From the IMG/VR virus record IMGVR_UViG_3300044732_000293, positions 36,842 through 100,841 of that record: a stretch of DNA of 64,000 bases, one strand, 5' to 3'. Of the stretch, positions 4,342 through 57,565 are shown one piece after another; the first letter of the stretch is position 1, and each line of letters opens with the position of its first letter. The notes below the pieces were generated by a model. The model was given only the letters and a program-made list of their open reading frames with translations, made no database searches and had not been told where the DNA came from. Source of the DNA: a virus. The position numbers were made by a program, and so were the translations under genes.

Positions 4342-7300
4342 ATGAAAATACGTATTACAGGAAAATCTTTACCTAAAGCTCAAAATGGAAAACCAATTAA
4401 TTATAAAAATTGGGTTGAGATTAATGGGACAAAAGTTTATGAGGGTGAAGCAGGATATGAAGAAGCTAGTAAAAAAGCTCAAGATGAATTTGCTCCAGCA
4501 AGAGCTCAGATAGCTGCGTGGAAAGCTAGTAAAGGTAAACCACCTGCTACAGTTACTGCACAAAGCAATCCACAAGCTGCAGGAACTTCTACACTTCAGA
4601 ATAATAATCCTTTTCAGGGAGTTACTAACTTTTTTAATAAGTCTGTTAAACCGTTATTCCAAAGAAATTCACAACAACCTACTGCTCCAGTTCAACAAAA
4701 TGTAAATACTGGTTTTAGTTTAGGTAATCCTGGTAACCAGACTTTTTTTACTCCAACGGGTAATAGTAGTAATCCTTATACATGGATGCCAACTGGTCAA
4801 AGTTTAGCTGCTCAACCTACACCACAAGCTTCACAGCCTGCTGCTCCTAGCAATCCATTACTAACCTGGAACAATCTTGGTTTACCTACAGATCCTGCTT
4901 ATATTAACAATGGTCTTATAGATAGTAAAAAAGGTTATGTAACAAAACAAGATACAGAGAAGTTGTTTAATGACATGAGATCACAAGGAAAGAATCTTCA
5001 GAACACTTTTGATACTGGATCTGCTAAAGATGTTAGACAAGCTATTGCTAATTATAATTCTCAATTTGGTACAGAGTTAAAAGATCCTAGATTGATTAAA
5101 CTAGGAGCTAAAGGTAGAAAAACTGTAGGACTTCTTGGAAAAGGAGCAGATGCTCTTCAACAAGGTATAGCTGTAACTAGTGCTCTTACTGACTTTATTG
5201 ATAATAAGAATCAGCAGAATAGATTTAACTCTTATATGAGAGATCAACAGATGTCTGATAATTTATATCCTGCTGTGCAAGGTTCTCGTGGAGATTATGT
5301 TCAGACAGGTACATCTTATGGTGCATTTAGACCAGATCAAATGGTTGTTAACAAAGGTATGTTTGCTCAAATGGGTGGAGAATTAAATATAGATAATATG
5401 AAAATACGTATAACATCTGGACCAAACAAAATGGAATATGGTGGTCAAGCTAAAAATGGCTATGGATTAGATCTAGGAAGTGGTCGTATCTATGAAGATA
5501 TGAATCAAAGTTCTTTTGATAATGCTAGCAATACTATGTCAGAAATTAAGAATCCTAATGAGCCGTATGTATTAGAAACAGAAGGTGATGAGGAAGTACT
5601 TCGTCCTGATGGAACTAAGTTTAGACTTAAAGGAAAGAGTCATGCTGAAGGTGGTATTAAAAATACTGCATCTCAGATACCAACAGGATCTTTTGTATAT
5701 TCTAAAAAACTTAAAGAAACTAATCCAGAAATCTTAGGAGCGTTTAATAAAACTTATAAGCGTGGTGGAGTATCTTATTCAGATATATCTAAGCAGTATG
5801 ATTTAAATAAGTTTAAAGCAATCTTAGATGATCCTAACGCAGATCCTTTAGCTAAGTCTACAGCTCAAATGATGAGTGATAATTATAAGAAGAAACTTGG
5901 TCAGTTAGCTTTAGCTCAAGAAAGTAAAAAAGGTTTTAAAGATGGTGTACCACAAGTGTATACAAACTCAGTTGAACAAGCTGCTTATGGTGGTTATATA
6001 GATACATTTGCATTAGGAGGTGCTTCTTATTTATTAGGAGCAGAACAAATAAATCCATATGCTGGTGGTAAAGAAAAAACTCCAACAGGAAAAAGTAATA
6101 AGTATGATCGTGGTAAAGAATATTTAGAAAACTGGGAGAAGTTTATTCCTGGTGTTAGTAAGTTATCTAATAAAGAAGCTCAGAGTAAAATCTATGATCT
6201 TATTTATGAACAGAATCCAGATGCTATTAATGAGATGTGGACAAAGTATGGTTTAACTAATGAGGGTAAGAAATATAAAGATTTAAGTGGTTTAACTAAA
6301 AATGGTAGATTTACTAAGCAACTTAGTGCAGATCAGTTAAAAAGTTTAAAGAAAGCTTATGTAGATGGATACTTTGGAGCTCGTCAATTAGATCCTAGTG
6401 CTATTCCACCTCCACCACCTCCTCCTCCGCCACCCCCTCCACCGCCTCCTCCACCACCACCGCCCCCTCCTCCTCCTCCATTGATTCCTCCTCCAATAGA
6501 GAGAGGTAAGATTCCTCCTGTTCCTTATGATTTTCTTGCTCCTGATAAGATGAGTATGTTGGCGGCTGGATTAAATCCTCCTAAGAAATACTTACCTTAT
6601 TATGCAAATTATAAGGCTAATTTACCTACTCCTACATTCTATAGTCCAGAACGTGAGCTAGCGGCTAATGCTGAACAAGCTAATATTATGACTCAGAGTC
6701 TTGCAAATTTTGCAAATCCTCAAGCATTTATGAGCAATGCATCTGCTGTACAAGGTAAGGCTGCTGAACAAGCTGCTAACACATTAGGTAAGTATAATAA
6801 CTTAAATGTTGGTGTAGCTAATCAGTTTTCTCCAATGATAGCTGAGACTTTGAATAAACAAGCTATGTATGCTGCTGAAAGAGCTAATGAGTTGTTTAAA
6901 GGTAATGTTATTGCTAATCAACAATATGATAACTCTAAACGAGCTTATGTTAATAATCTTGCTAAATCTTATGCTAATGCATGGAACAATCGTATGAACT
7001 TAGGAGATATTAATGATAGCATGGCTTATTATTATAAAGATCCTGCTACAGGAAGAAATGTATTTAAAGGTCCTGTTGGAAGTATAAAAGATTTAGGAAT
7101 GTATGGAAGTTCTTCAAACATGATGGGTATGAATCAACCAGCTCCTGTAGGTAATTTAGGTAATGCTTATAATAGTTTATATAAAGACTATTTAGCTCAG
7201 TTACAAGATTCTGACATGACTGCTGAGGAAAAAAAGAAACAAGCATCTAAATTAGCTAATTTAGGTATACAAAGTATGAGATCAACCAGAACAGTTAATT

Positions 7301-7392
7301 CAAGAAACCCTTTTCAATTTAATCAAAGAAACACACAGTATACTGGTTTAGAAAACTTCTCTGATGAAGATTTCATGGATGACCAAGAATAA
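4342..7392 (+). CDS. Virion cargo/ejection protein with GG motifs and polyproline tract
   Basis: 1016 aa, no Cys; E.EGDE..PDG..SHAEGG segment typical of crAss-like cargo proteins; MKIRIT occurs twice; 25-Pro run. Confidence 0.6.
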   Translation: MKIRITGKSLPKAQNGKPINYKNWVEINGTKVYEGEAGYEEASKKAQDEFAPARAQIAAWKASKGKPPATVTAQSNPQAAGTSTLQNNNPFQGVTNFFNKSVKPLFQRNSQQPTAPVQQNVNTGFSLGNPGNQTFFTPTGNSSNPYTWMPTGQSLAAQPTPQASQPAAPSNPLLTWNNLGLPTDPAYINNGLIDSKKGYVTKQDTEKLFNDMRSQGKNLQNTFDTGSAKDVRQAIANYNSQFGTELKDPRLIKLGAKGRKTVGLLGKGADALQQGIAVTSALTDFIDNKNQQNRFNSYMRDQQMSDNLYPAVQGSRGDYVQTGTSYGAFRPDQMVVNKGMFAQMGGELNIDNMKIRITSGPNKMEYGGQAKNGYGLDLGSGRIYEDMNQSSFDNASNTMSEIKNPNEPYVLETEGDEEVLRPDGTKFRLKGKSHAEGGIKNTASQIPTGSFVYSKKLKETNPEILGAFNKTYKRGGVSYSDISKQYDLNKFKAILDDPNADPLAKSTAQMMSDNYKKKLGQLALAQESKKGFKDGVPQVYTNSVEQAAYGGYIDTFALGGASYLLGAEQINPYAGGKEKTPTGKSNKYDRGKEYLENWEKFIPGVSKLSNKEAQSKIYDLIYEQNPDAINEMWTKYGLTNEGKKYKDLSGLTKNGRFTKQLSADQLKSLKKAYVDGYFGARQLDPSAIPPPPPPPPPPPPPPPPPPPPPPPPPLIPPPIERGKIPPVPYDFLAPDKMSMLAAGLNPPKKYLPYYANYKANLPTPTFYSPERELAANAEQANIMTQSLANFANPQAFMSNASAVQGKAAEQAANTLGKYNNLNVGVANQFSPMIAETLNKQAMYAAERANELFKGNVIANQQYDNSKRAYVNNLAKSYANAWNNRMNLGDINDSMAYYYKDPATGRNVFKGPVGSIKDLGMYGSSSNMMGMNQPAPVGNLGNAYNSLYKDYLAQLQDSDMTAEEKKKQASKLANLGIQSMRSTRTVNSRNPFQFNQRNTQYTGLENFSDEDFMDDQE
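6406..6480 (+). repeat. Polyproline-coding tract (25 consecutive CCN codons)
   Basis: Mixed cca/cct/ccg/ccc codons; a GC-rich island in an AT-rich genome. Confidence 0.95.
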
Positions 7393-7430
7393 ACCTATTA
7401 AGTTTAGTTTTAAACTTTAAAGATTTTATA

Positions 7431-7445
7431 GTATATTATTATGTA
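7431..7445 (+). promoter_or_regulatory. Candidate phage late promoter GTATATTATTATGTA
   Basis: 14/15 identical to 48734-48748; both are intergenic and upstream of + strand late genes. Confidence 0.55.
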
Positions 7446-7451
7446 AACAAT

Positions 7452-8831
7452 ATGGCAAGTTATATCCCAAATATTACAGACGTCTTTCCAGAACCAGTGC
7501 TTTACAGTCCTGATTTTAATAGGATTGAAAGAATGCTGCAGCAGAGAGAAGGTATGTACAAGCAAGGAGCTCAACGAGTAAAAAACTTGTATGAGTCAGT
7601 TTTTAATTCCAGTATGTTAAGAAGTGATAACATCCAAAGAAGAGATGCTTATCTTAAAGCAATTGATGAAGGTCTTAAAACTGTCTCTGCTCTTGACTTA
7701 TCTCTTCCTCAAAATCAGGAAATAGCTAGTAAGTTATTTGAACCTGTTACTACAGATCAAAGTATAGTAAAAGATATTCAATTTACTAAACAGTATCAGA
7801 GTGAATCAGCTAAAGCTGAACAACTTAGATCTTCTCAAGATCCTGCTATTAGAAAACAATACTGGGATACAGGTATGAAAGCTTTGCAATATCAAGCAGA
7901 AGAGTTTAAGAATGCAAATAGTAATGAAGCATTAAGTATGGGTAGTCCTAGTTATACACCTAACGTAGATCTATTTGAGCTATCTCAGAAAATGTATAAA
8001 GATGCAGGTATTAGTATAACTCAGGATAGTGTAAATGGTGGTTATATAATTACTCAAAAGAATGGAGATAATGCTATGCCTCTTACTCAATCCATGGTTA
8101 ACATGATGTTTGATCAAGATCCAGCTATTAAGTCTATGATTCAAACTCAAGCTTATGTAAATCGTAAAGATGAGATAGGTGCTAGAGCTCCTAAGTATAA
8201 AGGTAATACTGCTTTAGCAGAACAAGAATATACTAATGAAATAATAACTGACCTAGCTTCTCAACAAAATGCTCAATTAGATATTGATACAGCTTCTTTA
8301 GGTATACTTAGATCTAATGTAGAAAAGTGGGAAAAAATGATTAAGTCTAAAGGTATTGTTCCAGGAAGTAAAGATCATGAAGAGTATATGATGGCAGTGG
8401 GCAAATTAGATATGATGGAGAAGACCGTTACTCATGGTAGAAATAATTTATTACAGATGCAGAATATTGATAAAACTAACTTAGCTGATTTAAGAACAGC
8501 TGCTGATGGTGCAATATCTTCTGTATTATATCAAAAGTTAACAGGTCAACTTTCTAAATTCTTGGCATTTAAAGATGCAAGTGTAAAAATAAAAGCTGAT
8601 CCTTTTGCTTTATCTAGTCATAATTCTAACTTATCTTTGGGAAGAGCTCAAATAATGGAATCTATTAGACAAGGTAATAGAATTAAAACATTAGAAAAGA
8701 GAAAAGAATTAGGACTTGGTAGTGGTAGTGGTGGTTCTGGTAAAACTGGACCTATTGTTATAGATGAAAAAGGAAATTCTACTGGACCTATTAATCCACA
8801 AGATATAATAGACGGACTAAAAAAAGATTAA
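7452..8831 (+). CDS. Putative virion ejection/cargo protein
   Basis: 459 aa, helical, no Cys, in the virion block. Confidence 0.55.
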   Translation: MASYIPNITDVFPEPVLYSPDFNRIERMLQQREGMYKQGAQRVKNLYESVFNSSMLRSDNIQRRDAYLKAIDEGLKTVSALDLSLPQNQEIASKLFEPVTTDQSIVKDIQFTKQYQSESAKAEQLRSSQDPAIRKQYWDTGMKALQYQAEEFKNANSNEALSMGSPSYTPNVDLFELSQKMYKDAGISITQDSVNGGYIITQKNGDNAMPLTQSMVNMMFDQDPAIKSMIQTQAYVNRKDEIGARAPKYKGNTALAEQEYTNEIITDLASQQNAQLDIDTASLGILRSNVEKWEKMIKSKGIVPGSKDHEEYMMAVGKLDMMEKTVTHGRNNLLQMQNIDKTNLADLRTAADGAISSVLYQKLTGQLSKFLAFKDASVKIKADPFALSSHNSNLSLGRAQIMESIRQGNRIKTLEKRKELGLGSGSGGSGKTGPIVIDEKGNSTGPINPQDIIDGLKKD

Positions 8832-8835
8832 TATT

Positions 8836-10698
8836 ATGGCTGATATTATAGAAAACAATAGTTTTATGGAAACACCTCCATTGGAAAATCTTGATGAAAC
8901 AATGATTGACCAACCTACTATTGAAACAGAGGGTGGGGAAGGTGATCCTATCAAGAAAGGTGCTACTTCTGTAAAGAAGAATACCACTCCAAAGTATGAT
9001 AATGATTTTGGTCAATTAAATACCACTGCAGCTGAAACTAGTAAAAAACTAGCTGAGTTTGCTCAGATGGTGTTTAAAACTGCAGGAGTAACTCCTACAC
9101 ATAAAGGTAAACCTATTACAGATTTATCTACAATCTCTACTGTAGTATCAGATAGTAAAGCTGCTCAAGAATTATATACACAAGCCTTAAGTGCTTTAGA
9201 GTCTCCAGATTTAGATGAAGATTCTATAGCTAAATTCTATACACAAGTATTTGAAATAGAAAGTGGATTTAATCGTTCTGCTGCTATTAAGCAACAGATT
9301 AATAAAAATCAAAAGCTTGTTGCTAGTTCTTTAGATGCAAAACGTAAAAATGCAAGTCCTTATTATTCTTTACTTCTTGATGCTAATGGTGATTTTGTAT
9401 CTAAAGAACAATATAAGCGTAATGTAAGAAAGTATTATGAGGATGACCAAGCTCAGTTTCTTAAAAATAATCCTAGAGAAGCCACTTTTGATTATCGTGG
9501 AAATCCTACACAATGGATGAGAACTGATATGCCTAACCCAATGGCAGGTAAAATGTATAAAGATAAGTCTGGTAGATGGATACAACTAGATTCAAGACCT
9601 AAATTGCAAGGAACTACTGAAGGTTGGGATTTAACTTTCCAAGCCCGTATGATGAATAATGCTAAAGCAATGAGAGAAAGGATTGAAAGTTATGATGATG
9701 CTATACAGCAGATTAAAGATGATTATAATGTAAATAATCAAATTACTACAGTAAAAACTACAGAGGAAGGTGTATTTAAAGAGGGAGGTTCTGATGCTAC
9801 AACATCATTAAGTTCATCATTTAGTTTTGATGGTGATGATTTTTTAAATAGAGATGCTAAAGGAAATATTCTTAAAGTAGAAGATGCAAGTTCTAAAAGT
9901 AAAGAAGCTAATATATTTAAACCTGAATTTAAAAACTTATACAATCTAGTAGATAGAACTAAATCTATGGAAGGAGCTATTATTGTATCGGGATCTCCTG
10001 AAGATTATGCTAGTGGTGTACCTGATAAGACAGATGATAAAGTAAAAGCAAGTTTAAATCAGTTTAATATTGATTTAGATGAACATATTAAAACCTTTTT
10101 TTCTCATAGTAAGAAATTAACTGCTACTAAGTTAAAAGGAAGACCAGCTGGAAATGTAAGTTTTCAACCAATTGCTTCTGGAAATGAAAACTATCAAGCA
10201 TATCATATTACATTTGGTTCAGGTTATGCTGAAAAACATGCGGGTAGTGAAAAGAAAAAGAAGGAACATCCTGAGTATCAAAAAGGTATTACAATATTTG
10301 TTCCTAAAGATAAGGCAGGAGCAACTAGAATTGGTGCTGCATCTTTAAGAGGAAGTACTATTTCTAATACAGAAGCTGCTATAAACATGAGTAGTGATAA
10401 TACTTATAGATTTACTATACCTGGAGCAGGAACTATTGAAGCTTCTAAAATAGGTGATAGTGCATATACAGTTAGTGGTAATTTTGTAAACTACAATAGA
10501 AATACTGGTAAGTATGATACTATTGCCATTAATCCTAAAAAATTTGAAATAGGTGCAAGTATGGCACTTGATATGGACGGTCATATAAAAGAAAATGTAG
10601 ATAGTCTTATAAGTAATCTAATAAAAAATAGAACTATAAAAAACTTTCATAATTCTCAGAAAGGTGTTACTGATCCTAACTTATTAAAACGTAACTAA
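8836..10698 (+). CDS. Putative virion ejection/cargo protein
   Basis: 620 aa, no Cys, in the virion block. Confidence 0.55.
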   Translation: MADIIENNSFMETPPLENLDETMIDQPTIETEGGEGDPIKKGATSVKKNTTPKYDNDFGQLNTTAAETSKKLAEFAQMVFKTAGVTPTHKGKPITDLSTISTVVSDSKAAQELYTQALSALESPDLDEDSIAKFYTQVFEIESGFNRSAAIKQQINKNQKLVASSLDAKRKNASPYYSLLLDANGDFVSKEQYKRNVRKYYEDDQAQFLKNNPREATFDYRGNPTQWMRTDMPNPMAGKMYKDKSGRWIQLDSRPKLQGTTEGWDLTFQARMMNNAKAMRERIESYDDAIQQIKDDYNVNNQITTVKTTEEGVFKEGGSDATTSLSSSFSFDGDDFLNRDAKGNILKVEDASSKSKEANIFKPEFKNLYNLVDRTKSMEGAIIVSGSPEDYASGVPDKTDDKVKASLNQFNIDLDEHIKTFFSHSKKLTATKLKGRPAGNVSFQPIASGNENYQAYHITFGSGYAEKHAGSEKKKKEHPEYQKGITIFVPKDKAGATRIGAASLRGSTISNTEAAINMSSDNTYRFTIPGAGTIEASKIGDSAYTVSGNFVNYNRNTGKYDTIAINPKKFEIGASMALDMDGHIKENVDSLISNLIKNRTIKNFHNSQKGVTDPNLLKRN

Positions 10699-10701
10699 TT
10701 T

Positions 10702-13700
10702 ATGGCAGCATTAGAAAATAATAACTTAGGAATGTCTAGTTCTGAAGATCAAGCTGTCACAGAAAATCAAGTGGATCTATCATTAGATTTATCTACAGCT
10801 GATAGTCCTATTGATCCTTTGAATGATTATAATTTAGATAACATTCAAGCTCAGAATAATAGTGTAGAGCAAGGAACTCCTGCTGTTAATAATACTCCTC
10901 AAGATCCTCCTACTAAAAAGAAAGTATATACAGAAGCTGACATTGTAGCTTTAGAAAATCAACAGAGAAAGTCTACTAAAGAGTGGGCTGAGTATGGTTC
11001 AATGATGGCTACAAAAAAATATGTAGATCCTAATCAGGCTGCTAGAAAGATATCATTTGATTCTAAAAAAACAAGATTAGATAGATATTTAGGATATGGT
11101 ACAGAAACTTTTAACAAAGTAGGCTTTAGTCCATTTGCTAATAATGAAGAAGTATTTAATAAGAATACTACAATGTGGCAGGACTATAAAAGAATGTCAG
11201 GCAACGCTGCTGCTTTAACATGGTTAGGGTTTAAACAGAACTTTGCTTTTGGTGCATTAGATTTTAATACTGAAGAAGAAAATACTAGAAAATATCAAGA
11301 GCTTAGTGATATAGGTATGTCTAGTAAAGGTGGTGTAGGTGCCTTTGGTAATAATTTAATTCTTAATGGTGGATATGGTATTGGTGTTGGGTATAGCATA
11401 TTAACAGAAGAACTTCTTATGTTAGGAGCAGAAGGTTTAACTTTTGGTGGAGCAACTCCATTGGTTGCCGCTCGTACTGCTCAAAACTTAACTAAACTTG
11501 GAAAGCTTCGTGCAATGTTTAGTGGTGCTGCTAGTAGTGGTTTTAAAAGTGTTGAACTAGCTAGAACCGGTCTTAATGTATTTAAGTCATTGAAAGGTGC
11601 AGATAAAGCTAAAGATTTTTATACATCAATAAAAACTTTTGGTAAAGCTACAGGTAACTTTCTTAATCCTTTAGCTAGAGTTACTGATGATATTATGACA
11701 GGAAGTAATGTTGTTAGAAATGCTAGCAATATGGCTAAAATGTCTAAAACATTTGGTTCTTTCTATAGAGACGTAAGAGATATTAATGTAGCTCTTGGAG
11801 AATCTAAATTAGAAGGAGGTACTAAGAAACAAGAAGTTATTGACTTTGAAATTAATAAGTATAAGGAAGCTAATGGTAAAATGCCAGAGGGCAAAGACTT
11901 ACAAAACATATATGCTAAAGCTGAAGATGTATATCAAGGTGTTGTAGGTTTAAACTTACCTATTATATATTATACAAACCGTATTACGTTTGATGGTCTA
12001 TTTAAATTTAGAGGTTTTAAAACTTTAGAACAAGCTGGTAAAACTGTAGATCTTTCTAGCAAAGGTATTAAGTTTACAGCTGGTAAAGGATTTAGTGTTG
12101 AAGCAGCTAAGAAATGGTCACAAGTTAGTCTTAGAAAGTATCCAGGTATGATGTGGAACTATTCTAAACGTAATATATCTGAAGGTTTACAGGAGAACTT
12201 ACAGAATGTAATCTCTGACGGTGTTGGGGATTATTATGATGCTGTATATAAAGATCCTACATTAGGTGGATTTAACTTTGCAGCAGCAACTGCAGCTACC
12301 AATCTTAAAAAAGAATTTACTTCTGCTCGTGGTGCTGAAACTTTTCTTACAGGTTTCTTAATGGGAGCTGTAGCAGGTCCAGCACAAAGTGTATTCCTTA
12401 CTGAAACTCCAGGACTTTACTATAGAGGTAAAGATCTTGTAATGAAGACTAATGACTTTAAAGCTTATAAAGCTAAGAAGGCTGAACAAATTAAAGAGAA
12501 GGTAACTACACTTAATGAATTATACAAGAACCCATTAGATTTCTTTAGTGCTACTCAAGAGAATGCTGCTTCTCAGAATGCTGCATACACTACAATGATG
12601 CAGGCTGAGGATAATGGTGATGCTAAAACATACCAAGATACTAAAGATATTAGTTTATTTAATCATGTATTTACATCTATTAATAATGGAACATTTGATG
12701 ATCTTATAGATGGTTATAAGCAAATGGCTAAGTTAGATCCTAAGGAGCTAGCTGACTATCTTAAAGTGGAAGATGTAACTAAAGCTAAAGATAAGATACA
12801 AGAGGTTATTACAAGAGCTGAGCAGATTCAATCTACTTATAATAAGGTTAACTCTAAGTTTCAAAATCCATTTAATCCTTCTCAGTACAAGCCTGGTGAC
12901 CCAGAGCATGAAAGAGAAGCTATTGCTTATACAGCTTTTGAAAGAGCTAAAAGAAGTTTAGCTGTAGCTGAGCATGGCTTTGAACGTAGTATAGAAAGAA
13001 TGGAAAGTCTTTACCAAGATATTTCTACTAATCGTCCTATAGAGAAATCTAGTAATTCTGATTATAGTATATTGCTAAATGCTGAGTCTATTAAGAATGA
13101 GATATATACTCTTAGAAAAGAGATTGCATCATTTGGTCCGGAGTCTCAACAGAATCCTGAACAAAAGAAGTTAGCTAAACAAAAGCTTCAAAAGTTAGAA
13201 GACCTTCAAGAGTACAGAGATAATCTTGATAGTCATTTGGCAGCTATTAAAAGCCAAGAAAGCATTCAGAATGGTGAGTTTGTAATTCAACCTATTGCTG
13301 AATCATATGAGTCTTTAAGAAATAGTTATAAGAAGTATTTAAAAAATATTGCTAAGTTATCTGGTGATTATGTATTTGATAATAAAATAGATGATTCATT
13401 TGATAAGCTTGCAGATTACTATTCTTTAAATAATGATGCTAAGAATCTTAGTAATGTTATTAATACATTGTTAGATCCAACTAACTTATATGCTCATGCC
13501 GAGACTATAAATGACAAGCTTAATAAAATTTTTGAGGATAGAGGAAGAAGCTTTGAAGAGCAAATGGAAAGCTATTCTAGAATGGCAGAGATGAATGCTT
13601 TAATAGAAGAGTTGGCTAAAGCAGGAGTGGTAATTGATCAAGATGAATTTGTAGAATATATTAAAAGTGGTAAGCGTCCTACTAAGTTTTTAGATAAGGA

Positions 13701-49364: not shown

Positions 49365-49609
49365 ATTTTAAAGACTGGGTTTTAGATCTTTTTAAAGATG
49401 AGCGTGGTTCTACCTCTATTAAACCTGTAGTAGGTTTTATGTGTGCATTATTCTTATGTGTAACATTAACTGCTAACAGTTTTAGTCATGGAGATATTAA
49501 ACCTTCAGATGCTTTGGTAGAGTCTGTAATGTATATCTGTATAGCAGCTTTACTTGGTGATACCGGTGATAAGTTTTCATTAAAAAAGAAGTCAGATGAA
49601 ATATCTTAG
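49361..49609 (+). CDS. Putative holin (two TM helices)
   Basis: Two hydrophobic segments and a basic C-terminus; upstream of the endolysin. Confidence 0.55.
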   Translation: MNFKDWVLDLFKDERGSTSIKPVVGFMCALFLCVTLTANSFSHGDIKPSDALVESVMYICIAALLGDTGDKFSLKKKSDEIS

Positions 49610-50216
49610 TATAATTATCGTAATATTAATTGTAGTGGTATTCTTTCAGCAAGGAGGATGCGGTTATGTTAATTTTGATGGTAAGAAGTCAGATACTACA
49701 GTTGTCCATGATACTACATGGTCTGTACATGATACTACCATTTATAAAACACTAACTTTAAAAGGTAAAGTGTTACATGATACAATTGCTACTCCTCCAG
49801 AGTATATAGCTGATACAAACTATCCTAAGCTTTTAGCTCAATATAATGATTTGTTAAGTAAATATATGGCTCTTGTAGAGTTTAAAGATACAATTAGAAT
49901 AGATACTCTTGGTTATGTGGCTATTACAGATACAGTAAACCAAAATAGTCTTAAAGGTAGATCGGTTAGAACTAACTATAAGATTCCTACAATAACTAAT
50001 ACTGTTACTATACAGCATTATGAAAAGCCTAAAACTCAAATGTTTTTTGGTGGTGGTATAAACGGTAATCAAACTCTTGGAATTACAGGAGCAAGTGCCG
50101 GGGTGTTATTAAAGAATAAAAAAGATCATATATATGGATTGAATATAGGTACTGAAATTAACGGTCCTATTACTTATGGTATTCAATCTTATTGGAAGAT
50201 AAAACTAAAAAAATAG
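49596..50216 (+). CDS. Putative spanin-like lysis protein
   Basis: N-terminal TM/lipobox-like GGC, DTT repeats and C-terminal beta strands; in the lysis cassette. Confidence 0.5.
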   Translation: MKYLSIIIVILIVVVFFQQGGCGYVNFDGKKSDTTVVHDTTWSVHDTTIYKTLTLKGKVLHDTIATPPEYIADTNYPKLLAQYNDLLSKYMALVEFKDTIRIDTLGYVAITDTVNQNSLKGRSVRTNYKIPTITNTVTIQHYEKPKTQMFFGGGINGNQTLGITGASAGVLLKNKKDHIYGLNIGTEINGPITYGIQSYWKIKLKK

Positions 50217-50393: not shown

Positions 50394-51011
50394 ATGGACT
50401 TATCTCGTTTAAAAGGACATGTTCCTGACACAGTTATTGCTCAGATTCCTTCTATACAAGAAAAGTTTGGTATCAACACTGCATTAAGACTTGCACATTT
50501 TTTAGCTCAAGCTGGACATGAATCTGCTGGATTTAGAGTTACACAAGAAAACCTTAACTATTCAGGTAAAGGTCTTAAAGGAATCTTTGGTAAGTATTTT
50601 AAAAGACCTGATAAGACTTTTGATGAACCAAAGGTACTAGCTTATGCTAAAAAACCTGAGAAGATTGCAAATCTTGTTTATGGTGGTAGAATGGGTAACG
50701 GTCCTGAGGCATCAGGTGATGGTTATAAGTTCAGAGGCCGTGGTTATATCCAGTTAACTGGTAAAGATAACTATACAGCGTTTGGTAAATCAATTGGTGT
50801 AGATATGGCTGCTAATCCTGATTCAGTAGCTACAACTCATGCTTTATCTTCTGCAGCTTGGTTCTGGAGTAAAAATGGTTTAAATGCCATTGCTGATCAA
50901 GGAGCTACAGATGAAGTAGTTACTAAGATTACAAAAAGAGTTAACGGTGGTACAATTGGTTTAGCTGATCGTATCAAACACTTTAAAGAGTATCATACAC
51001 TACTTGTTTAA
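50394..51011 (+). CDS. Endolysin, glycoside hydrolase family 19
   Basis: AHFLAQ.GHES, ENLNYS, GN...GDGYKFRGRGYIQLTGK.NY, SAAWFW, TKRVNGG..GL.DR. Confidence 0.93.
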   Translation: MDLSRLKGHVPDTVIAQIPSIQEKFGINTALRLAHFLAQAGHESAGFRVTQENLNYSGKGLKGIFGKYFKRPDKTFDEPKVLAYAKKPEKIANLVYGGRMGNGPEASGDGYKFRGRGYIQLTGKDNYTAFGKSIGVDMAANPDSVATTHALSSAAWFWSKNGLNAIADQGATDEVVTKITKRVNGGTIGLADRIKHFKEYHTLLV

Positions 51012-51027
51012 TTCTAAATAAATCAAA

Positions 51028-51159
51028 ATGGCTGTAAAGAAAGGTTCTAAATCTGACAACAGAAAAGTCTCTTTTGGTAAACGCAAAGGAGGAAAGGCTT
51101 CAAAAACATCTGGCCCTAAAGCTAAGAAAGTTAGTAAGTACAGAGGTCAGGGTAGATAA
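51028..51159 (+). CDS. Small Lys-rich protein ending YRGQGR (43 aa)
   Basis: MAVKKGSKSDNRKVSFGKRKGGKASKTSGPKAKKVSKYRGQGR; A-rich start context. Confidence 0.7.
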   Translation: MAVKKGSKSDNRKVSFGKRKGGKASKTSGPKAKKVSKYRGQGR

Positions 51160-51179
51160 TTTCTACCCTTTCTTTTTTT
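51149..51179 (+). terminator. Intrinsic terminator closing the lysis cassette
   Basis: agggtaga-taatt-tctaccct followed by ttcttttttt. Confidence 0.8.
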
Positions 51180-51192
51180 AAAAATTTATACT

Positions 51193-51822
51193 ATGTTAAT
51201 ATTAACTAAATTCCGAGAGTATATACTCTACGGTTTTATGACCTTTGTAGGTGCTTGGCTAATTTTTGCTTTAAGTTTTATGCTCTACTGTTTATTTTTA
51301 GAATTTACAGGAGGTCAAGAAAAACTTCAGCAAATGTCTAATGAGTTTTCCTGGAAGTTTGATGGTACATTTAAAAATCATCCAGGTAATATTTGGTATG
51401 AAGAGCCTAAGACAATTGCTATAGGAATGATTACTAACAAGATTCAAATTGGAAACTTAGCTGGTAATAGAAAACTAGAATTTGGTATAAAGAATGTCTT
51501 AGAAGAAGTGTATCAAGCTGAAGGCTACGATTTAGATCATGCTTCTGACAATGTTTTAAAAGTTGATATAGTATATCTAGACGTATTAAAGACACAATCT
51601 AGTTTTTCTATAGTGCATAATAACAAAGAATCTGTAGTTATTAGACTGCAAGGTTTCTTGTATAAAGGTGATAAGCTCGTTAAAAAGATTCTTGTAGAAG
51701 AATCTGCAGATGAGATATCAATGTCCACTCTTCTTATAGATGAGGGAGGTAAATTTAACAATCAAAATTTATCTACTGCTATTAAAAAAGCATGTAGTTC
51801 ACTTGTAAAGAAACTTAATTAA
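51193..51822 (+). CDS. Membrane-anchored CsgG-fold-like protein
   Basis: N-terminal TM; C-terminus KFNNQNLSTAIKKAC parallels KFNQSTISISTKKAL of the protein at 55479. Confidence 0.5.
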   Translation: MLILTKFREYILYGFMTFVGAWLIFALSFMLYCLFLEFTGGQEKLQQMSNEFSWKFDGTFKNHPGNIWYEEPKTIAIGMITNKIQIGNLAGNRKLEFGIKNVLEEVYQAEGYDLDHASDNVLKVDIVYLDVLKTQSSFSIVHNNKESVVIRLQGFLYKGDKLVKKILVEESADEISMSTLLIDEGGKFNNQNLSTAIKKACSSLVKKLN

Positions 51823-53927
51823 TGAAGAAACTGTTATTTTTTCTTACTCTTTTATTTGTTATTCAAGCCTCAGCTCAACAAAAGTTTAAAGCTGCTGCAT
51901 CAGTAGGTGGTCCATCTCTTAATAGAGGTGGTGAGTTTGACTATGTAATTTATGGTAATGGTATGAACAATGCTACTACTCGTCAGTTACTATTTGATTT
52001 ACAATATGATAGAAACAATTTTGAGATTGTATCTGTAAATCATACTGGTACAGGTGGTAATGGTGGCATTCTCCCTCAAGGTTCTACTATTAATCTTTCT
52101 TATTATGATTATCCTGGATATAACTTTCTTACAGTGAGCTCAGGATCTAGTGCTAATAATACAACTAATGGTACTACTAACTATCAATATGCACAGTATA
52201 ATTATAGCAATACCAATCCATATGCTATATTAAGAGTTACTCTTACTTGGTCTACTAATTCAGCAATGCCCTATAGTGGTTATAGTGACTTTATAAAAAT
52301 TAAATATAGACTTAAAGCTACATCTACTGCTTATACATTTAATCCTATTAAACTAAACTTTGTAGCTGGTTGGACTGCTGCTGGTGCCTATGACGCTACA
52401 GTAATGGAAGCTCCATTAACTACAGCTGTAGCCATGAACCAAAACTTTGGTAAATATGTAACAGCTAAGGTAGATTTAAATTCTAACTTATTTAATCTTT
52501 CTAATCTTAAAGTATCTTTTAGAGATACTATTACAAATACTGGAGTGATGTTTCCTGTAACTTCTACAGGAGATGTAGATGTAAATCAATCTCAGTTAGC
52601 TGCAAATAAAGTTTATGAAGTTAGTTTAATGCATGACATGGATAAATTATATGATATCTATGGTAATGCAATCACTATATCTGATTTTACTACAGCTCAG
52701 AATGAATTTACTTCAATGGGACTGGATGGATCTAACGGTCAAAACTTAAAGACTGGACAATCTTTATATGCTGCTGACATTAATAGAAACCAAAAGATAG
52801 ATGGAGGTGACTTACCTAGATTACTAGGTCAAGTAGCTAATATAGATACACTAACAAAACTTCCTAGTACTTATGTTGCAGGTAGTGCTGGATATATGAG
52901 TATTCCTACTTGGAATGCAGCTGAAATACGTACACTTGCTGGTCAAGTTGAATGGGTGTATGTCAATGTTGGAACATCAAATAGTACTCTGTATATTGAT
53001 ATGAGAAAGTTTCCTAGTGGAACTGTAGCTAGTACTTTAAAAAGTATACAATTATTTGATGTATACACAGGACCTATAGAATATATAACAGAAGATGCTG
53101 CTTGGGCTCAGTATAAAATTCCTACTACTATACCAAAAGCTGTAGATGGTAGTTCATTATACTCTGTATATATAAGAAAGAATAATAATGATTATATGTT
53201 CCAAGCTGAACCTAGTTTTAATACTTCTGTAAATAGTTCATGGGGAGCTATAAGTACTACTAACTGGAAGAATATAACATATCCTAGAACTTATTTAACT
53301 ACAGGAACTCTTGGTACAAATGCTGTGTTGGATCTTAAATATCTTTTATGGGGTGACGTAAATAGATCTCACTCTTCTCAAGTTGTGACTGTTTCAGGTG
53401 GATCTTCTACTGTACAAACAAATGCCGTTAATAGTTTACAAACTAACACTGCGTTTAGAAATATGTCTACATTCTCTACAGGAGGATTTATTAACACTCC
53501 ATATGATGTAAGTTCTGTAGATATAAACTTAACAAATCTAACTGTTACAAGCAATACTATAGAAATACCTGTAGGTTTAGACACTAAAGGTTTAAATGTA
53601 TCTGGTTTACAGTTTGAGTTCACATACGATCCTAAAAAGATTAAGTTTGAAGAGCTTATCCCTACACTTCCTGCTACTTGGTATATTTTTGCAAATGATA
53701 ACAATGGTAGAGTTAAATTCGGAGCATTAGATCAAAATAAATCAGTTGCTTTATCTGGTATAAGCACACCATTTAAACTTAAGTTTAGTACAATTGGTGA
53801 AGGTGTAAATATTATTACATCTGTAAAAGTATCAACTCTTATGGATGCTAGTGACGCTAAAGGTAATCAATTAGGTATCAATCTAAATTCTACACAAATT
53901 AAATTAACCGGTTATAACAACTTTTAG
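51822..53927 (+). CDS. Exported cohesin/dockerin-like protein
   Basis: Signal peptide ending ASA/Q; cohesin-like N- and C-terminal beta domains (FDLQYD; IEIPV...SGLQFEFTYDP); dockerin-like AADINRNQKIDGGDL and GDVN. Confidence 0.65.
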   Translation: MKKLLFFLTLLFVIQASAQQKFKAAASVGGPSLNRGGEFDYVIYGNGMNNATTRQLLFDLQYDRNNFEIVSVNHTGTGGNGGILPQGSTINLSYYDYPGYNFLTVSSGSSANNTTNGTTNYQYAQYNYSNTNPYAILRVTLTWSTNSAMPYSGYSDFIKIKYRLKATSTAYTFNPIKLNFVAGWTAAGAYDATVMEAPLTTAVAMNQNFGKYVTAKVDLNSNLFNLSNLKVSFRDTITNTGVMFPVTSTGDVDVNQSQLAANKVYEVSLMHDMDKLYDIYGNAITISDFTTAQNEFTSMGLDGSNGQNLKTGQSLYAADINRNQKIDGGDLPRLLGQVANIDTLTKLPSTYVAGSAGYMSIPTWNAAEIRTLAGQVEWVYVNVGTSNSTLYIDMRKFPSGTVASTLKSIQLFDVYTGPIEYITEDAAWAQYKIPTTIPKAVDGSSLYSVYIRKNNNDYMFQAEPSFNTSVNSSWGAISTTNWKNITYPRTYLTTGTLGTNAVLDLKYLLWGDVNRSHSSQVVTVSGGSSTVQTNAVNSLQTNTAFRNMSTFSTGGFINTPYDVSSVDINLTNLTVTSNTIEIPVGLDTKGLNVSGLQFEFTYDPKKIKFEELIPTLPATWYIFANDNNGRVKFGALDQNKSVALSGISTPFKLKFSTIGEGVNIITSVKVSTLMDASDAKGNQLGINLNSTQIKLTGYNNF

Positions 53928-53928
53928 A

Positions 53929-54300
53929 ATGAATAAATTAGAAAAATTATTAAACTTAGGCTTTTTACTAACTCTTGTAGTTGCAAGTTGTAGAAAAGTA
54001 GAACCTGTACCGTTTCAAGTAATTGATTTAGGTAAACAGTCTACATCTACAAGTATTAAGTCTATTGTACAGAATGGTACTACAGTAACTGCAGAGTTTG
54101 TAACAACTCCGGGAGCCAAATATTCTGTACAGATAATTCCATTTGGCTCAGAAGAGCCTGCTAAGAAAGATGGATTTACAGCTAAAGATAGTTTAACTGT
54201 TAAATCTTATAGCTTAGTTGATTTACCTAAAAAGCACTATGATTTCATATTTATAGACATTAGCGGTAAAGAAGTAAAGTTTCCTATATTAATTAAATAA
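53929..54300 (+). CDS. Lipoprotein with Ig-like/T9SS-CTD-like domain
   Basis: Lipobox VASC; C-terminus L.DLPKKHY.F.F.D.SG..VK..ILIK. Confidence 0.6.
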   Translation: MNKLEKLLNLGFLLTLVVASCRKVEPVPFQVIDLGKQSTSTSIKSIVQNGTTVTAEFVTTPGAKYSVQIIPFGSEEPAKKDGFTAKDSLTVKSYSLVDLPKKHYDFIFIDISGKEVKFPILIK

Positions 54301-54318
54301 ACTATAAAAACATACATT

Positions 54319-54624
54319 ATGTCAGAAGAAGTAGAACAAGAATCAACCGGTAAGTCCTTTAAAGGAATTCTTATCACTTTAGTAAGCACCGTTACACTAG
54401 GTGTAGGCGGATTTGTTACTAACAAATTAACAGGTGGTGGTGATGAGAAAGAAACTCCTGCTGCTGCAGCCCCAGTTATTAACATTACCAACTCTAACCA
54501 GCAAGCTGCTGCTAGTGGTGGTAAAACTGTTATTATTAAGGAGAAAGAAGTTGCAGCTAAACCTGCTGCTCCTGTTAAAAAGAAAGAAGGAGACGAGTTT
54601 AAAGAAGAAGCTCCTAAATGGTAA
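54319..54624 (+). CDS. Single-TM protein with low-complexity tail
   Basis: 101 aa; TM segment GILITLVSTVTLGVGGFV. Confidence 0.6.
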   Translation: MSEEVEQESTGKSFKGILITLVSTVTLGVGGFVTNKLTGGGDEKETPAAAAPVINITNSNQQAAASGGKTVIIKEKEVAAKPAAPVKKKEGDEFKEEAPKW

Positions 54625-54651
54625 TATATTATTAAGAATTAAAAAGTTTTC

Positions 54652-55239
54652 ATGGAAGATAAAAAACAACCAGAAGCTGGTGGGTTCAAGGAACTCTTAG
54701 GCTCAATGATGAGAAGACGCTGGTTTATTACAGCGTTAGTATTAGGATCATTTATGATGATCATTGTAGCTATTTTTATAGCTGTATCTAATAATGCCTC
54801 TATGGCTGGAGAATGGAAAGAGTTATTAATGTTATTATTAGGAGCTTTTATTGGCTCTTATGGTAAGATTATAGATTACTGGTTCTCTGATACAGATAAA
54901 GATAAAATGCTTGTACAGAAGATGGATGAAGAAGATGGTACTACTCTTTCTCATACTAATGATATGAAAGAGTCTAACAAGCCATATGCTCCAACTATTC
55001 CTGATGCATTTGTTCAAGCTGCTATAAAGACTGCAGATAGAACTCATGAGTATAATAGAGATGAACAAGAACATCGTCAAGTTTTAGAAGCTGATCAACA
55101 AGAGCATAAACAAGAGATGGAAAAGTTAGAATTCTTGCATCATGAGCACAAACAGTGTGTGCATGAGTGGGGTGATACTGACGGTGATGGAGACTTAGAG
55201 TGTATCCATTGTGGCAGAATCAAGGATGAACATTGTTAA
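54652..55239 (+). CDS. Two-TM membrane protein with His/Cys-rich C-terminus
   Basis: Two TM helices; EH heptads; CVHEWGDTDGDGDLECIHC. Confidence 0.65.
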   Translation: MEDKKQPEAGGFKELLGSMMRRRWFITALVLGSFMMIIVAIFIAVSNNASMAGEWKELLMLLLGAFIGSYGKIIDYWFSDTDKDKMLVQKMDEEDGTTLSHTNDMKESNKPYAPTIPDAFVQAAIKTADRTHEYNRDEQEHRQVLEADQQEHKQEMEKLEFLHHEHKQCVHEWGDTDGDGDLECIHCGRIKDEHC

Positions 55240-55263
55240 CTTAACTAAACACTATGGATTCTG

Positions 55264-55482
55264 ATGACCAAAAGACAGAGACTAAAAATACTTCGTTCCT
55301 CACGGGATGCCAGCTTAATGGCAGCCATGTTCTTCCTGCCATTAGGATACGATCTCTTGTTCAAGACGCTCTTAGATTACACTGGGAGCTTTTGGGCTAC
55401 AGATATCATATTTTATTGTCTATCAGGAGTATTTTGGCTCTCATACTTCTTGCTGTCCAAATCTTTAAAGACTAAAACATGA
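55264..55482 (+). CDS. Small two-TM protein
   Basis: 72 aa; two hydrophobic segments; ATGA overlap with the next gene. Confidence 0.55.
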   Translation: MTKRQRLKILRSSRDASLMAAMFFLPLGYDLLFKTLLDYTGSFWATDIIFYCLSGVFWLSYFLLSKSLKTKT

Positions 55483-56192
55483 AATATTTTGTAATACTAG
55501 CTTGTTTACTATTTACTATTGGTAGTAAAGCACAAATTGCATCTACTAAAACAGAAAACTATAAAGCTTCTTTTGAAAAAGCTATAGATATTTCTGATTT
55601 CTTAGACTATGATGGCCCACAAATACCTATACAGATATTAAAGTGTGGCATATCAGACGAAATGTATGAGATGTATCCTGAGCTTAAAGAAAAGCGTGTA
55701 GGTCTTGGCGTAGCCAACATCTCTATGGAATATTTAGAGAATCTTAATAGATTCAAGTTTACAGAGGATAAAACTGAGATCAAGAACAGGATGGTTAAAC
55801 AATTCCAAGCATCGGCTGCTGGAATATCTGAGAACAAACTGGATGGTCGTGGTAAGATCAATCTTGCCAAATACTTTGTAACAATTGAATGTTATGATTA
55901 TAGTATATCAGAAGATGAAAGTGTTAGCCTTAAAGATGGTACAAAACAGCTTATGGTTACGAGGATTGGTTTACAGGTTAGATTCACTGATGCTGAAACT
56001 GGTGTGGTTTTTAGTGGTTCTGGACTTGGAGAAGCAAAGACTACTAAAGAGACTTCAGGATTATCAGATGCAGCCTTAGATCCTGTTAAATTTAATCAAT
56101 CTACTATCAGTATTTCTACTAAAAAGGCATTGGATATAGCTTGTGCTCGTATCCTAGATCGTATGATTAAGAAAGGTATATTTACTAAATAA
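55479..56192 (+). CDS. CsgG/HfaB-like exported protein
   Basis: Signal peptide ending SKA/Q; G..NI..EYL....RF, LQVRFTDAETGVV..GSG.GEA, terminal helix KKALD.A. Confidence 0.7.
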   Translation: MKYFVILACLLFTIGSKAQIASTKTENYKASFEKAIDISDFLDYDGPQIPIQILKCGISDEMYEMYPELKEKRVGLGVANISMEYLENLNRFKFTEDKTEIKNRMVKQFQASAAGISENKLDGRGKINLAKYFVTIECYDYSISEDESVSLKDGTKQLMVTRIGLQVRFTDAETGVVFSGSGLGEAKTTKETSGLSDAALDPVKFNQSTISISTKKALDIACARILDRMIKKGIFTK

Positions 56193-56200
56193 TTACTATT

Positions 56201-56308
56201 ATGGCAAACGCTAAGAAAAAGAAAAGAGCTATGAGATCAGTTAAATCTGGAGTTAAAACTGCAGCTTTAATCAAATCTAATTTAGTCATCTTAAATAAGT
56301 TAAAGTGA
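56201..56308 (+). CDS. Small basic peptide (35 aa)
   Basis: MANAKKKKRAMRSVKSGVKTAALIKSNLVILNKLK; abuts the next start. Confidence 0.5.
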   Translation: MANAKKKKRAMRSVKSGVKTAALIKSNLVILNKLK

Positions 56309-57565
56309 TTGAAACAGTTTATATTTGTTCTATTTTTAGTAGTATTACTACCGTTTTATGCGTATAGCCAAACTCTTATACAGACGTTTCAAGACCCTTG
56401 TACTAAAGTTATTAGTACGTTTAGCATTCCTATTAGTGGTAGCACTGTTATTGTGTTTTATAATAAGTCTAGGACTTTTACTGCCGCTGATATATCTTCT
56501 GGTGCATTTCAGACTTGGATTAATCAGGTATATGAAGATTATCGTAGATTATCTCCCTGCTCTGTGGCTCAGACTGCACAAACTAGCACTACAGTTACAG
56601 CCAATGCTGTCTCTGCTGCAGTAGGTGCTGCTGTAAGCTCTGCAACATCATCTGCTGCCTCTAGTGCGGCTTCTTCTGCTGCTTCTGCAGCTGCAGCATC
56701 TTCTGCTCCTCCACCTACTAGTAGCTCTGCTCCTAGTTCAAGCAATTCTCAAGGATCGAGCTCGGAGTCTAGTAGCAGCAGCTCTAGTAGTTCATCAGAA
56801 TCTAAATCTGAATCTAAGAGTGAAAGTAGTTCTGAATCTAAATCAGAAGAAAAATCAGAGTCTAAGTCTGAATCTAAATCTGAAAAGAAGTCTGAGTCTA
56901 AAAAGGATTCTAAATCCTCTAATAAGTCTCAGGCTAGGATGAATCCTATATTATTTAATTCTGATCTCACTGCAGGTCAAAATGTTGATGCTAGTGTAGC
57001 ATTAGTGCTTACAGGAGGTATATCACAGTCTTCTATGACTGGAGCTAGCTCATGGGGCGTCACTGGTATGGTATGGAGTAATCTAAAACAGTTTGTTGTC
57101 TCTTCTAGATATACTAAAATGAATTTCAATGGAGGGAAGTTAGAGTCTATATCTAACTATGGTTTTACTACAGCAGTGATGTTTGGAAACGTTTCTAGTT
57201 TCTTAACATATGCTTACATCTACCCTTTGGGTAAATGGGGTGTTACGGGTGCTAACTACACATTGGCTTTTAGTAAGGACAATGTAATGCACAATCTTCT
57301 ACTCTTCTACACTAAGCCTTTTTCTGTTAATAGAAGGCTAAATCTATCTCCTGAGCTTTATATCTCAGGGAGTCCTGTTATGTACATGTTTGATACTAAG
57401 GACTTTGTTATATCCGAGGATATGGGTTTTATCACAGGTGTGTCCGGTGATTATTCTTTTACTAAACGTTTTAAATTAAATGTAGGATTGAGGACTAGTC
57501 TTTCAACTAATCCTCAAATTCCTATATTATTATTTATGGTGGTAGGTTCTAAAATTAATCTTTAG
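56309..57565 (+). CDS. Exported protein with Ser/Glu/Lys linker and C-terminal outer-membrane beta-barrel-like domain
   Basis: TTG start; signal peptide ending AYS/Q; SESK repeats; alternating amphipathic strands to the C-terminus. Confidence 0.65.
   Translation: MKQFIFVLFLVVLLPFYAYSQTLIQTFQDPCTKVISTFSIPISGSTVIVFYNKSRTFTAADISSGAFQTWINQVYEDYRRLSPCSVAQTAQTSTTVTANAVSAAVGAAVSSATSSAASSAASSAASAAAASSAPPPTSSSAPSSSNSQGSSSESSSSSSSSSSESKSESKSESSSESKSEEKSESKSESKSEKKSESKKDSKSSNKSQARMNPILFNSDLTAGQNVDASVALVLTGGISQSSMTGASSWGVTGMVWSNLKQFVVSSRYTKMNFNGGKLESISNYGFTTAVMFGNVSSFLTYAYIYPLGKWGVTGANYTLAFSKDNVMHNLLLFYTKPFSVNRRLNLSPELYISGSPVMYMFDTKDFVISEDMGFITGVSGDYSFTKRFKLNVGLRTSLSTNPQIPILLFMVVGSKINL

Follow-up and report, generated by a model that had tools for sequence, protein, structure and literature searches.

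The window analyzed here is a stretch of 64,000 nucleotides from the 100,841-bp IMG/VR virus record IMGVR_UViG_3300044732_000293 (positions 36,842 to 100,841 of that record), and it contains a block of eight genes, g1 to g8, that can be regarded as a mobile phage-borne envelope cassette. The products most likely form one complex which holds cohesin-dockerin binding proteins, and masking of the host surface or an increase in its stickiness is the most plausible purpose; this reading is held with middling confidence. As judged from sequence, the source is a lake phage of Flavobacterium-type bacteria and the eight products are predicted to be directed to the host membranes, periplasm or surface. 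In the data examined, few accessory modules of freshwater Bacteroidota phages are shared as widely as this block, and since it occurs across phage lineages without being broken up, it must repay its 6 kb. No description of this gene combination was found in the literature searched. New are the bacterial family (A6) that bridges g1 and g7 as paralogues and leads to a bacterial tandem pair, the evidence against a membrane-inserted g7, and the counts of core and accessory genes.

Gene block and export signals

The block consists of eight contiguous and tightly packed open reading frames (ORFs) on the + strand, 51193-57565 in the ORF listing. Upstream lies a lysis cassette with a GH19 endolysin gene (50394-51011, +), and a convergent VWA/MoxR gene pair starts where g8 ends (57565). 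The features are as follows (aa, amino acids; T9SS, type IX secretion system, in the text below).

51149..51179 (+): terminator-like hairpin (51149-51169) and T run, between lysis cassette and module
51193..51822 (+): g1, 209 aa; one N-terminal membrane helix (residues 18-36) and predicted periplasmic YajG/CsgG-superfamily domain
51822..53927 (+): g2, 701 aa; secreted, modular; signal peptide ASA/QQ, N-region of unknown fold, dockerin-like segment, C-terminal cohesin
53929..54300 (+): g3, 123 aa; lipoprotein, LVVAS-C
54319..54624 (+): g4, 101 aa; bitopic inner-membrane protein with one helix (residues 16-34) and periplasmic Ala/Pro/Lys-rich tail
54652..55239 (+): g5, 195 aa; membrane protein with conserved juxtamembrane segment and C-terminal Cys/His motif
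55264..55482 (+): g6, 72 aa; small hydrophobic accessory protein
55479..56192 (+): g7, 237 aa; secreted, non-lipidated CsgG-fold protein
56309..57565 (+): g8, 418 aa, TTG start; signal peptide, N-domain, helix, linker, barrel

The hairpin has a stem of 8 pairs, 4 of them G-C, and is followed by TTCTTTTTTT. The reading frames and this hairpin agree with the first-pass annotation made from the letters of the window, which described eight contiguous genes behind a lysis terminator. That annotation assigned a signal peptide, lipobox or transmembrane helix to seven of the eight, while here an export or membrane feature is read in all of them. Besides the helices of g1 and g4, these are a lipobox in g3 (VAS-C), a strong membrane helix found by hydropathy scan in g5 (residues 25-43) with a second conserved hydrophobic stretch seen by eye, and signal peptides in g2 (cleavage ASA/Q), g7 (SKA/Q) and g8 (AYS/Q). 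The feature of g6 was read by eye only, as two hydrophobic stretches of which none exceeds the threshold of the hydropathy scan. A virion component was rejected as an explanation of the block, since every product has such a signal.

All three Sec substrates (g2, g7 and g8) have Gln at position +1, as had been noticed before, and this residue is conserved in relatives (59 of 61 for g2, and every N-terminus listed for g7). Bochtler et al. reportedly formulated in 2018 a Q-rule for the signal-peptidase-I substrates of Bacteroidota. The conserved Gln fits this rule, and also a Flavobacterium-type host. Searches of all eight proteins against NCBIfam and PHROGs gave nothing meaningful, the matches of g8 being low-complexity artefacts.

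Recurrence of the block among phages

A relative of g7 is encoded on 514 IMG/VR contigs, and the g7 relatives comprise 5,395 protein clusters when grouped at 90% identity. The viral loci compared below were the best 80 by g7, and counts were taken from the 55 of these with enough flank. The genes g2, g4, g7 and g8 are present in 55/55 loci, followed by g1 (51), g5 (50), g3 (42) and g6 (25), and the block is colinear and on the same strand in 47/55. The genes thus recur as a unit in many phage genomes, which answers the co-occurrence check proposed by the first-pass annotation; of the two outcomes it had named as speaking against its reading, wrong folds and genes that do not co-occur, neither was found. 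Unrelated morons that are adjacent by chance were considered and rejected, since the order is conserved across lineages.

The block is found on contigs of about 100-130 kb with the lysis and MoxR neighbours of this phage, and also on contigs of 200-335 kb that lack those neighbours and whose flanks differ widely. A more divergent series of loci (L126-L147) occurs in lake metagenomes. When the same genome pairs are compared, g7 is 81-97% identical, whereas median identities for the rest of the module lie at 37-59% (g6 75%). Among 185,579 species genomes, close relatives of g7 turned up on only two contigs of metagenome-assembled genomes, one of which is a mis-binned phage contig because the MoxR and VWA neighbours of this phage lie on it.

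A related set of genes, gp15-gp19, is carried by the cultured but otherwise unrelated 160-kb myophage vB_FspM_immuto_2-6A (immuto; MW353175), whose host is Flavobacterium sp. LMO8. By BLASTP, gp17 corresponds to g7 (54% identity), gp18 to g8 (31% over the N-terminal part, with the same architecture), gp19 to g1 (27%, E 3e-6) and the cohesin protein gp15 to the C-terminus of g2 (37%). The likeness of gp16 to g4 is one of architecture only, with an acidic N-terminus, one membrane helix and a low-complexity tail ending in W (the E value of 6.3 is not significant). In contrast to the window, cohesin and lectin stand on separate proteins in immuto, and the g1 homologue is placed after g8. By annotation and reading by eye, not by Pfam scan, the upstream gp13 (a C-type lectin) and gp14 (hypothetical) would be related through dockerin-like motifs, and gp15 appears likewise to end in a T9SS-type sorting domain. 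The annotation of the immuto module genes goes no further than hypothetical, cohesin or lectin protein.

The CsgG-fold protein g7

The best conserved gene of the module is g7, and the CsgG-like fold assigned to its product by the first-pass annotation is supported by the structural model and by Pfam matches of relatives. The model (predicted local distance difference test, pLDDT, 78.5) has a long protruding beta-hairpin at residues 132-171. In Foldseek its top matches are CsgG structures (4uv2/6l7a/4uv3; E 5e-7, TM score 0.5-0.56), and in VIA the best is CsgG 6lqh_A (Z 12.6, root-mean-square deviation 3.1, 179/206 aligned), followed by Cj1090c, PelC (Z 9.8), LptE (8.3) and TraT (7.3). By fold, CsgG, PelC, LptE, TraT and LpoB belong to a single class of envelope lipoproteins. 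Among viral proteins, g7 is matched best by a phage protein named CsgG. There is no Pfam match to g7 itself, while CsgG (PF03783) is matched in 19 of 34 aligned relatives (best E 1.9e-17) and LpoB in 6 of the 34; since the match is found only in relatives, membership of the CsgG family is transitive and distant. Neither the single g7 sequence nor its family profile (A1), when compared with solved structures, matched any CsgG chain by sequence.

A fold of this kind raises the question of type VIII-like (curli-type) secretion, in which g7, perhaps with g1, would be an outer-membrane pore exporting unfolded g2 or another product. In CsgG, two amphipathic beta-hairpins per subunit build the membrane barrel of a nonameric ring, which works with CsgF and CsgE on curlin substrates, and insertion into the outer membrane requires lipidation at an N-terminal lipobox Cys. 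The protruding hairpin of the g7 model and the fact that its structural matches are best to CsgG, membrane-bound form included, favor such a pore, and some exit route is needed for the g2 of the window, which has no T9SS sorting domain. Clusters of csgG/csgF are also known from pelagimyophages (HTVC008M group) and from the OM43 phage Melnitz, where their function is unknown and uptake, aggregation and lysis timing have been hypothesized (PMC7029224, PMC9004378).

Nevertheless, g7 and its phage relatives have a signal-peptidase-I site of the SKA/Q type and no lipobox Cys, though the distant bacterial relatives are lipoproteins (L-x-G-C). For the protruding strands (residues 141-150, 154-162, 185-192 and 196-205), face hydropathy averages no more than 0.36, as compared with 1.54 for the barrel strands of g8, by a simple hydropathy measure on one model. 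A Pfam scan of the eight products and a repeat search revealed no CsgF, CsgE or curlin-like protein; the only tandem repeats in the block are those of the low-complexity g8 linker (Ser/Ala and SESK), so that the absence of a curlin-repeat gene, remarked on before, holds. The failure of the family profile to match solved CsgG by sequence and the T9SS sorting domains on some g2 relatives also speak against curli-type export. Because the lipid anchor is absent and the protruding strands lack a hydrophobic face, g7 is probably not a curli-type membrane-inserted pore. The part of the first-pass annotation that saw in g7 a CsgG-type outer-membrane secretion ring is therefore not supported, and curli-type secretion by the module is considered quite unlikely.

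The g1 protein and its paralogy with g7

For g1, a CsgG-like nature had also been claimed, and it is supported at a greater distance than for g7. The g1 sequence itself matches Pfam PF03923 (Lipoprotein_16) with E 5e-4 and 20.2 bits, under the cut-off of 25, and its family does so in 17 of 21 members (best E 1.7e-6), with TraT in 2 of 21. The look-alikes of g1 in the Atlas are viral PF03923 clusters, and a g1 profile compared with solved structures gave chance-level matches only. Relatives of g1 are anchored by a membrane helix, bear a lipobox or are plain secreted proteins; g1 itself is helix-anchored and not a lipoprotein. Translation might instead begin at Met16 (51238), which is the start used in the public Atlas record, while relatives keep the longer N-terminus.

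The motifs common to the 209-aa and 237-aa proteins, pointed out in the first-pass annotation, reflect a real but distant homology. Direct profile comparison of g1 with g7 is weak (probability 6.7%, E 0.005), the shared motifs being colinear, and paralogy was not accepted from this comparison alone. It was kept only once it was supported by the bacterial family A6, a divergent second paralogue found beside g7-type lipoproteins on cellular metagenome contigs in a metagenome scan. A6 matches the g7 family with 99.9% probability and the g1 family with 89.6% (E 1.9e-6), and since it bridges both families, g1 and g7 are distant paralogues. On the cellular contigs a strong g7-type lipoprotein and the divergent paralogue stand in tandem, and the cellular origin of one of them, L090, is indicated by SecD, SecF, adenylosuccinate synthetase and 54% G+C. 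From these sequence relationships, a bacterial tandem pair was probably the ancestor of the phage g1/g7 pair. In 7/55 viral loci g1 stands directly before g7. On other contigs (L087, L102, L107 and L111) large proteins adjoin the bacterial tandem pairs of CsgG-fold lipoproteins, namely transglutaminase-like proteins with TPR (825-842 aa), a caspase protein with PEGA (606 aa) or a T9SS sorting-domain protein (840 aa).

The cohesin and dockerin-like protein g2

Two segments of g2 are relevant to binding.

52653..52835 (+): g2 dockerin-like motif, residues 278-338, in two segments, DIYGNAITISDF... and DINRNQKIDGGDLPRLLGQV
53553..53786 (+): g2 cohesin, residues 578-655, Pfam PF00963

The cohesin of g2 matches PF00963 with E 8.4e-5 and 23.2 bits, just under the cut-off of 24.1, and the cohesins of its relatives pass this cut-off with up to 30.6 bits. 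Compared with solved structures, the g2 family profile (A8) matches the cellulosomal cohesins 3l8q (E 3.2e-6) and 4ums (E 1e-4). The cohesin proposed for g2 in the first-pass annotation is thus substantiated. The dockerin part of that proposal stands as far as a two-segment motif is concerned, which is kept across 61 g2-family sequences, and is not supported by the Pfam model, as Dockerin_1 has no match in g2 at E up to 1. The motif contains putative calcium loops, which have the canonical form DxNxDG...D in large-phage versions; in the lineage of this phage, the first of them is degenerate.

Relatives of g2 carry extra domains, including a C-type lectin (Lectin_C), LCCL, or a T9SS sorting domain (Por_Secre_tail). 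The last is represented by the g2 homologue of L071 (E 1.6e-5). Owing to this sorting domain, some g2 relatives at least would leave the cell via the host type IX system and not through a phage pore.

The outer-membrane barrel g8

The model of g8 (pLDDT 72.5) divides the protein into the following parts behind the signal peptide.

g8 residues 22-82: small N-domain with two Cys
g8 residues 83-125: Ala/Ser-rich helix
g8 residues 126-212: disordered Ser/Glu/Lys linker, about 88 residues
g8 residues 214-418 (nt 56948-57562): predicted 12-stranded outer-membrane beta-barrel

The beta-barrel mentioned in the first-pass annotation appears in the model as a 12-stranded one with a pLDDT of 79-91, and its strands have a hydrophobic face. 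In VIA it resembles the translocators of the autotransporters NalP (Z 23.0), EstA (21.6) and AIDA-I (20.6), followed by FapF (18.6), KdgM (17.7) and NanC (16.7); Foldseek likewise gives FapF (E 3e-7) and also NanC. The architecture is kept in 27 relatives with a linker of variable length, and in none of the 27 was a match to the Pfam autotransporter family found.

As KdgM and NanC are small 12-stranded porins, g8, with or without g7, could be a channel for nutrients or larger molecules, and uptake has been proposed for pelagimyophage CsgG (PMC7029224). Such a device would not account for the proteins with cohesin-dockerin or lectin parts, for those of the inner membrane or for the long g8 linker, and the best matches of the barrel are autotransporter translocators whose pore is plugged. 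A role in uptake or permeability is considered very improbable.

The lipoprotein g3 and the membrane proteins g4 to g6

The lipoprotein listed in the module by the first-pass annotation is g3, in which the lipobox Cys21 is invariant in 20 relatives. From weak sequence matches, it is possibly a beta-sandwich resembling the T9SS sorting domain. The relatives show a weak Por_Secre_tail match in 3 of 20 (best E 0.0039) and DUF3244 in 1 of 20, and comparison of the g3 profile with a true T9SS sorting domain was negative (probability 2%). In L071, where the g2 homologue bears a sorting domain, no g3 gene stands behind it. Origin of g3 as a split-off T9SS sorting domain was tried as an explanation and not adopted in view of these weak matches and the low profile probability.

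In g4, AAPVINITNS and KKKEGDEFKEEAPKW are conserved, and the protein ends with W in all 57 relatives. The Cys/His motif of g5 is probably cytoplasmic and zinc-binding; the Atlas look-alikes of g5 are phage-only clusters, none of which has a named family. The sequence of g6 is conserved in 24 relatives. A second ORF (55254-55475, 73 aa, + strand, other frame) overlaps g6, and conserved relatives exist only for the 72-aa frame.

Proposed function and association with lysis genes

The predicted locations of the products are the inner membrane (g1, g4, g5 and g6), the periplasm (g7), and the outer membrane for the lipoprotein g3 and the barrel g8. From this spread over the layers, a trans-envelope or envelope-seated complex is a reasonable proposal. 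In such a complex, g4, g5, g6 and the anchor of g1 would be seated in the inner membrane. Both CsgG-fold domains, that of g1 and that of g7, would be periplasmic and, by analogy with CsgG, PelC and TraT, would probably form ring-type assemblies; several members of this fold class form rings at the outer membrane. The g8 barrel would lie in the outer membrane, where its charged linker and N-domain may span the periplasm as in FapF or reach the surface as in autotransporters, and g3 would be tethered to the same membrane. Binding proteins of the g2 type would then be held or chained via the dockerin-like motif and the cohesin. As an outcome, the outer envelope would be re-dressed with exchangeable binding proteins, which may mask receptors against further phages or make the infected cells sticky.

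The cell surface is suggested as the site of action by features of g2 relatives, namely their exchangeable heads (lectin and LCCL) and their T9SS sorting domains. Resistance of Flavobacterium to phages maps to gliding and T9SS genes (bioRxiv 10.1101/2020.10.02.323337; PMC9804748), and for this reason receptor masking or stickiness is regarded as the most plausible purpose. A more specific version is tentatively put forward as a possibility. Here the block would encode a self-contained trans-envelope machine, derived from a bacterial pair of CsgG-fold lipoproteins, that mounts exchangeable lectin-type heads by cohesin-dockerin coupling and controls the attachment of other phages, sibling cells or particles to infected Bacteroidota.

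Several points weigh against a surface-active complex of this kind. The g2 of the window has no T9SS sorting domain in the Pfam scan, which leaves its route across the outer membrane unexplained, and it may stay periplasmic. The g8 helix is placed within the barrel with little confidence (pLDDT 42-67). Part of the excess conservation of g7 comes from the selection of the loci, which were chosen by g7, and gene exchange could be reflected in it as well. Finally, the block often stands beside lysis genes, which would suit a role in lysis equally.

Such a role would be that of an inner-outer membrane complex which aids or times rupture of the outer membrane when infection ends, in place of spanins; neither spanins nor other outer-membrane disruption genes are known for these phages. 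In this lineage the block stands directly behind the lysis cassette, and elsewhere an endolysin lies just upstream on the opposite strand or inside the block (L036-type loci, L069). A 206-aa lipoprotein of the lysis cassette (49596-50216, +) has a homologue directly after g8 in L036-type loci, the large-phage versions include a class 3 lipase along with a non-specific nuclease that is secreted, and the adjacency of the outer-membrane lipoprotein g3 and the bitopic inner-membrane protein g4 recalls a spanin pair. On the other hand, immuto and the 200-335-kb contigs have no homologues of the lysis genes of this phage within the 8-kb flanks of the block, and it is not obvious what the modules of lectin, LCCL and cohesin-dockerin type would do in lysis. 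The periplasmic part of g4 is short and not coiled-coil, and eight genes far exceed any known outer-membrane disruption device. A lysis-associated module is considered unlikely, and the envelope complex holding cohesin-dockerin binding proteins is preferred. Concerning the 206-aa protein, its sequence includes FFQQGG-C, which resembles a lipobox, and its C-terminus is rich in beta structure (homologue at L036:10024-10644, 29% identity); it may form a link between the lysis genes and the module, or serve as a lysis factor for the outer membrane.

Overall, the reading given in the first-pass annotation is retained for the folds and for the co-occurrence of the genes, and not for the outer-membrane secretion ring of g7. 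The module bears on the purpose of phage-borne CsgG genes, on the reshaping of host surfaces by phages of T9SS-bearing hosts, and on cohesin-dockerin coupling outside cellulosomes. If the machine controlling attachment were real, it would represent a widespread phage strategy in lakes that has no characterized counterpart; if the complex served lysis alone, it would still account for outer-membrane disruption, for which no genes are known in these phages. The module is directly testable, as a cultured pair exists in phage immuto and Flavobacterium sp. LMO8.

Relation to known systems

The clusters of pelagimyophages and Melnitz are alike to the present module in that a phage-borne CsgG-fold gene stands in a small cluster of exported-protein genes without curlin subunit genes. 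They differ in having recognizable CsgG and CsgF and in resembling proteobacterial curli operons, whereas no CsgF was found here. The g7 protein carries no lipid, its sequence lies very far from that of CsgG, and the hosts here are Bacteroidota. The partners also differ: g7 is accompanied by another CsgG-superfamily paralogue, a 12-stranded barrel on a stalk, the cohesin-dockerin protein, a lipoprotein, and three proteins of the inner membrane. It has only the CsgG fold in common with those clusters.

The fold of g7 is shared with the E. coli CsgG channel (4uv3, 6lqh) and its fold class (PelC, LptE, TraT, LpoB and the N-domain of TolB), but g7 lacks the lipid anchor, amphipathic membrane hairpins and sequence-level match to E. 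coli CsgG. For g8, the counterparts are type Va autotransporters (NalP, EstA, AIDA-I) and FapF, which likewise have a C-terminal 12-stranded barrel after a helix and an N-terminal extension; FapF also has an N-terminal domain and a flexible linker, and its barrel is plugged. In contrast, g8 has no sequence similarity to them, about 88 disordered residues between helix and barrel, and an N-domain of about 60 residues. Cellulosomal scaffoldins (ScaB, 3l8q, 4ums) resemble g2 in the cohesin and in what appears by sequence to be a two-segment calcium-loop dockerin-like motif, and the Por_Secre_tail ending of g2 relatives is common to the T9SS type A cargo of Bacteroidota. Unlike in cellulosomes, there are no glycoside hydrolases, cohesin and dockerin-like motif stand on one phage protein, and the heads of the relatives are lectin or LCCL.

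Further observations

The stretch is contained in 19 lake and freshwater DNA runs. Short, near-identical contigs of g5, g8 and the endolysin occur in one metatranscriptome, where DNA carry-over is possible; as contigs moreover give no ranking of genes, they were left unused for timing, and stretches of the block that lack RNA contigs carry no information. In one contig of a lake DNA run (X1), position 47706 is joined to 60008, by which 12.3 kb with the lysis cassette, the module and the VWA gene are skipped; the junction is anchored by only 21 bases and may stem from a repeat or another phage. For a 459-aa protein of the structural region, no match was found among cultured phages in a search concerning crAss-likeness, and searches with the polymerase and MoxR gave nothing informative on this point.

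Several enzymes are inserted in the modules of large phages (L078:7248-7991; L041:6495-7190, 7258-7989 and 10638-11240; L069 around 7272), namely the class 3 lipase, a family 2 glycosyltransferase, a calcineurin-type phosphoesterase that is LpxH-like by eye, the non-specific nuclease, and an endolysin placed just before g7. The nuclease bears a signal peptide and is also found beside the immuto module. Between g5 and g7 on a 269-kb contig (L029:6903-7973) lies a gene for a 356-aa acidic protein with degenerate Ala/Glu/Ser/Val repeats (AEAxASAGVEV-like), which has no signal peptide and, like g4, starts with MSEE... and closes on an aromatic residue (...RKWF). Between g7 and g8, large phages (L078:9154-9999, L028:4878-5696) encode a secreted protein of 270-280 aa with a Trp/Asn/Gln/Pro-rich stretch (e.g., NWGWYQPMPYIWYDDFGW) and a beta-rich C-terminus, which may be a second outer-membrane protein.

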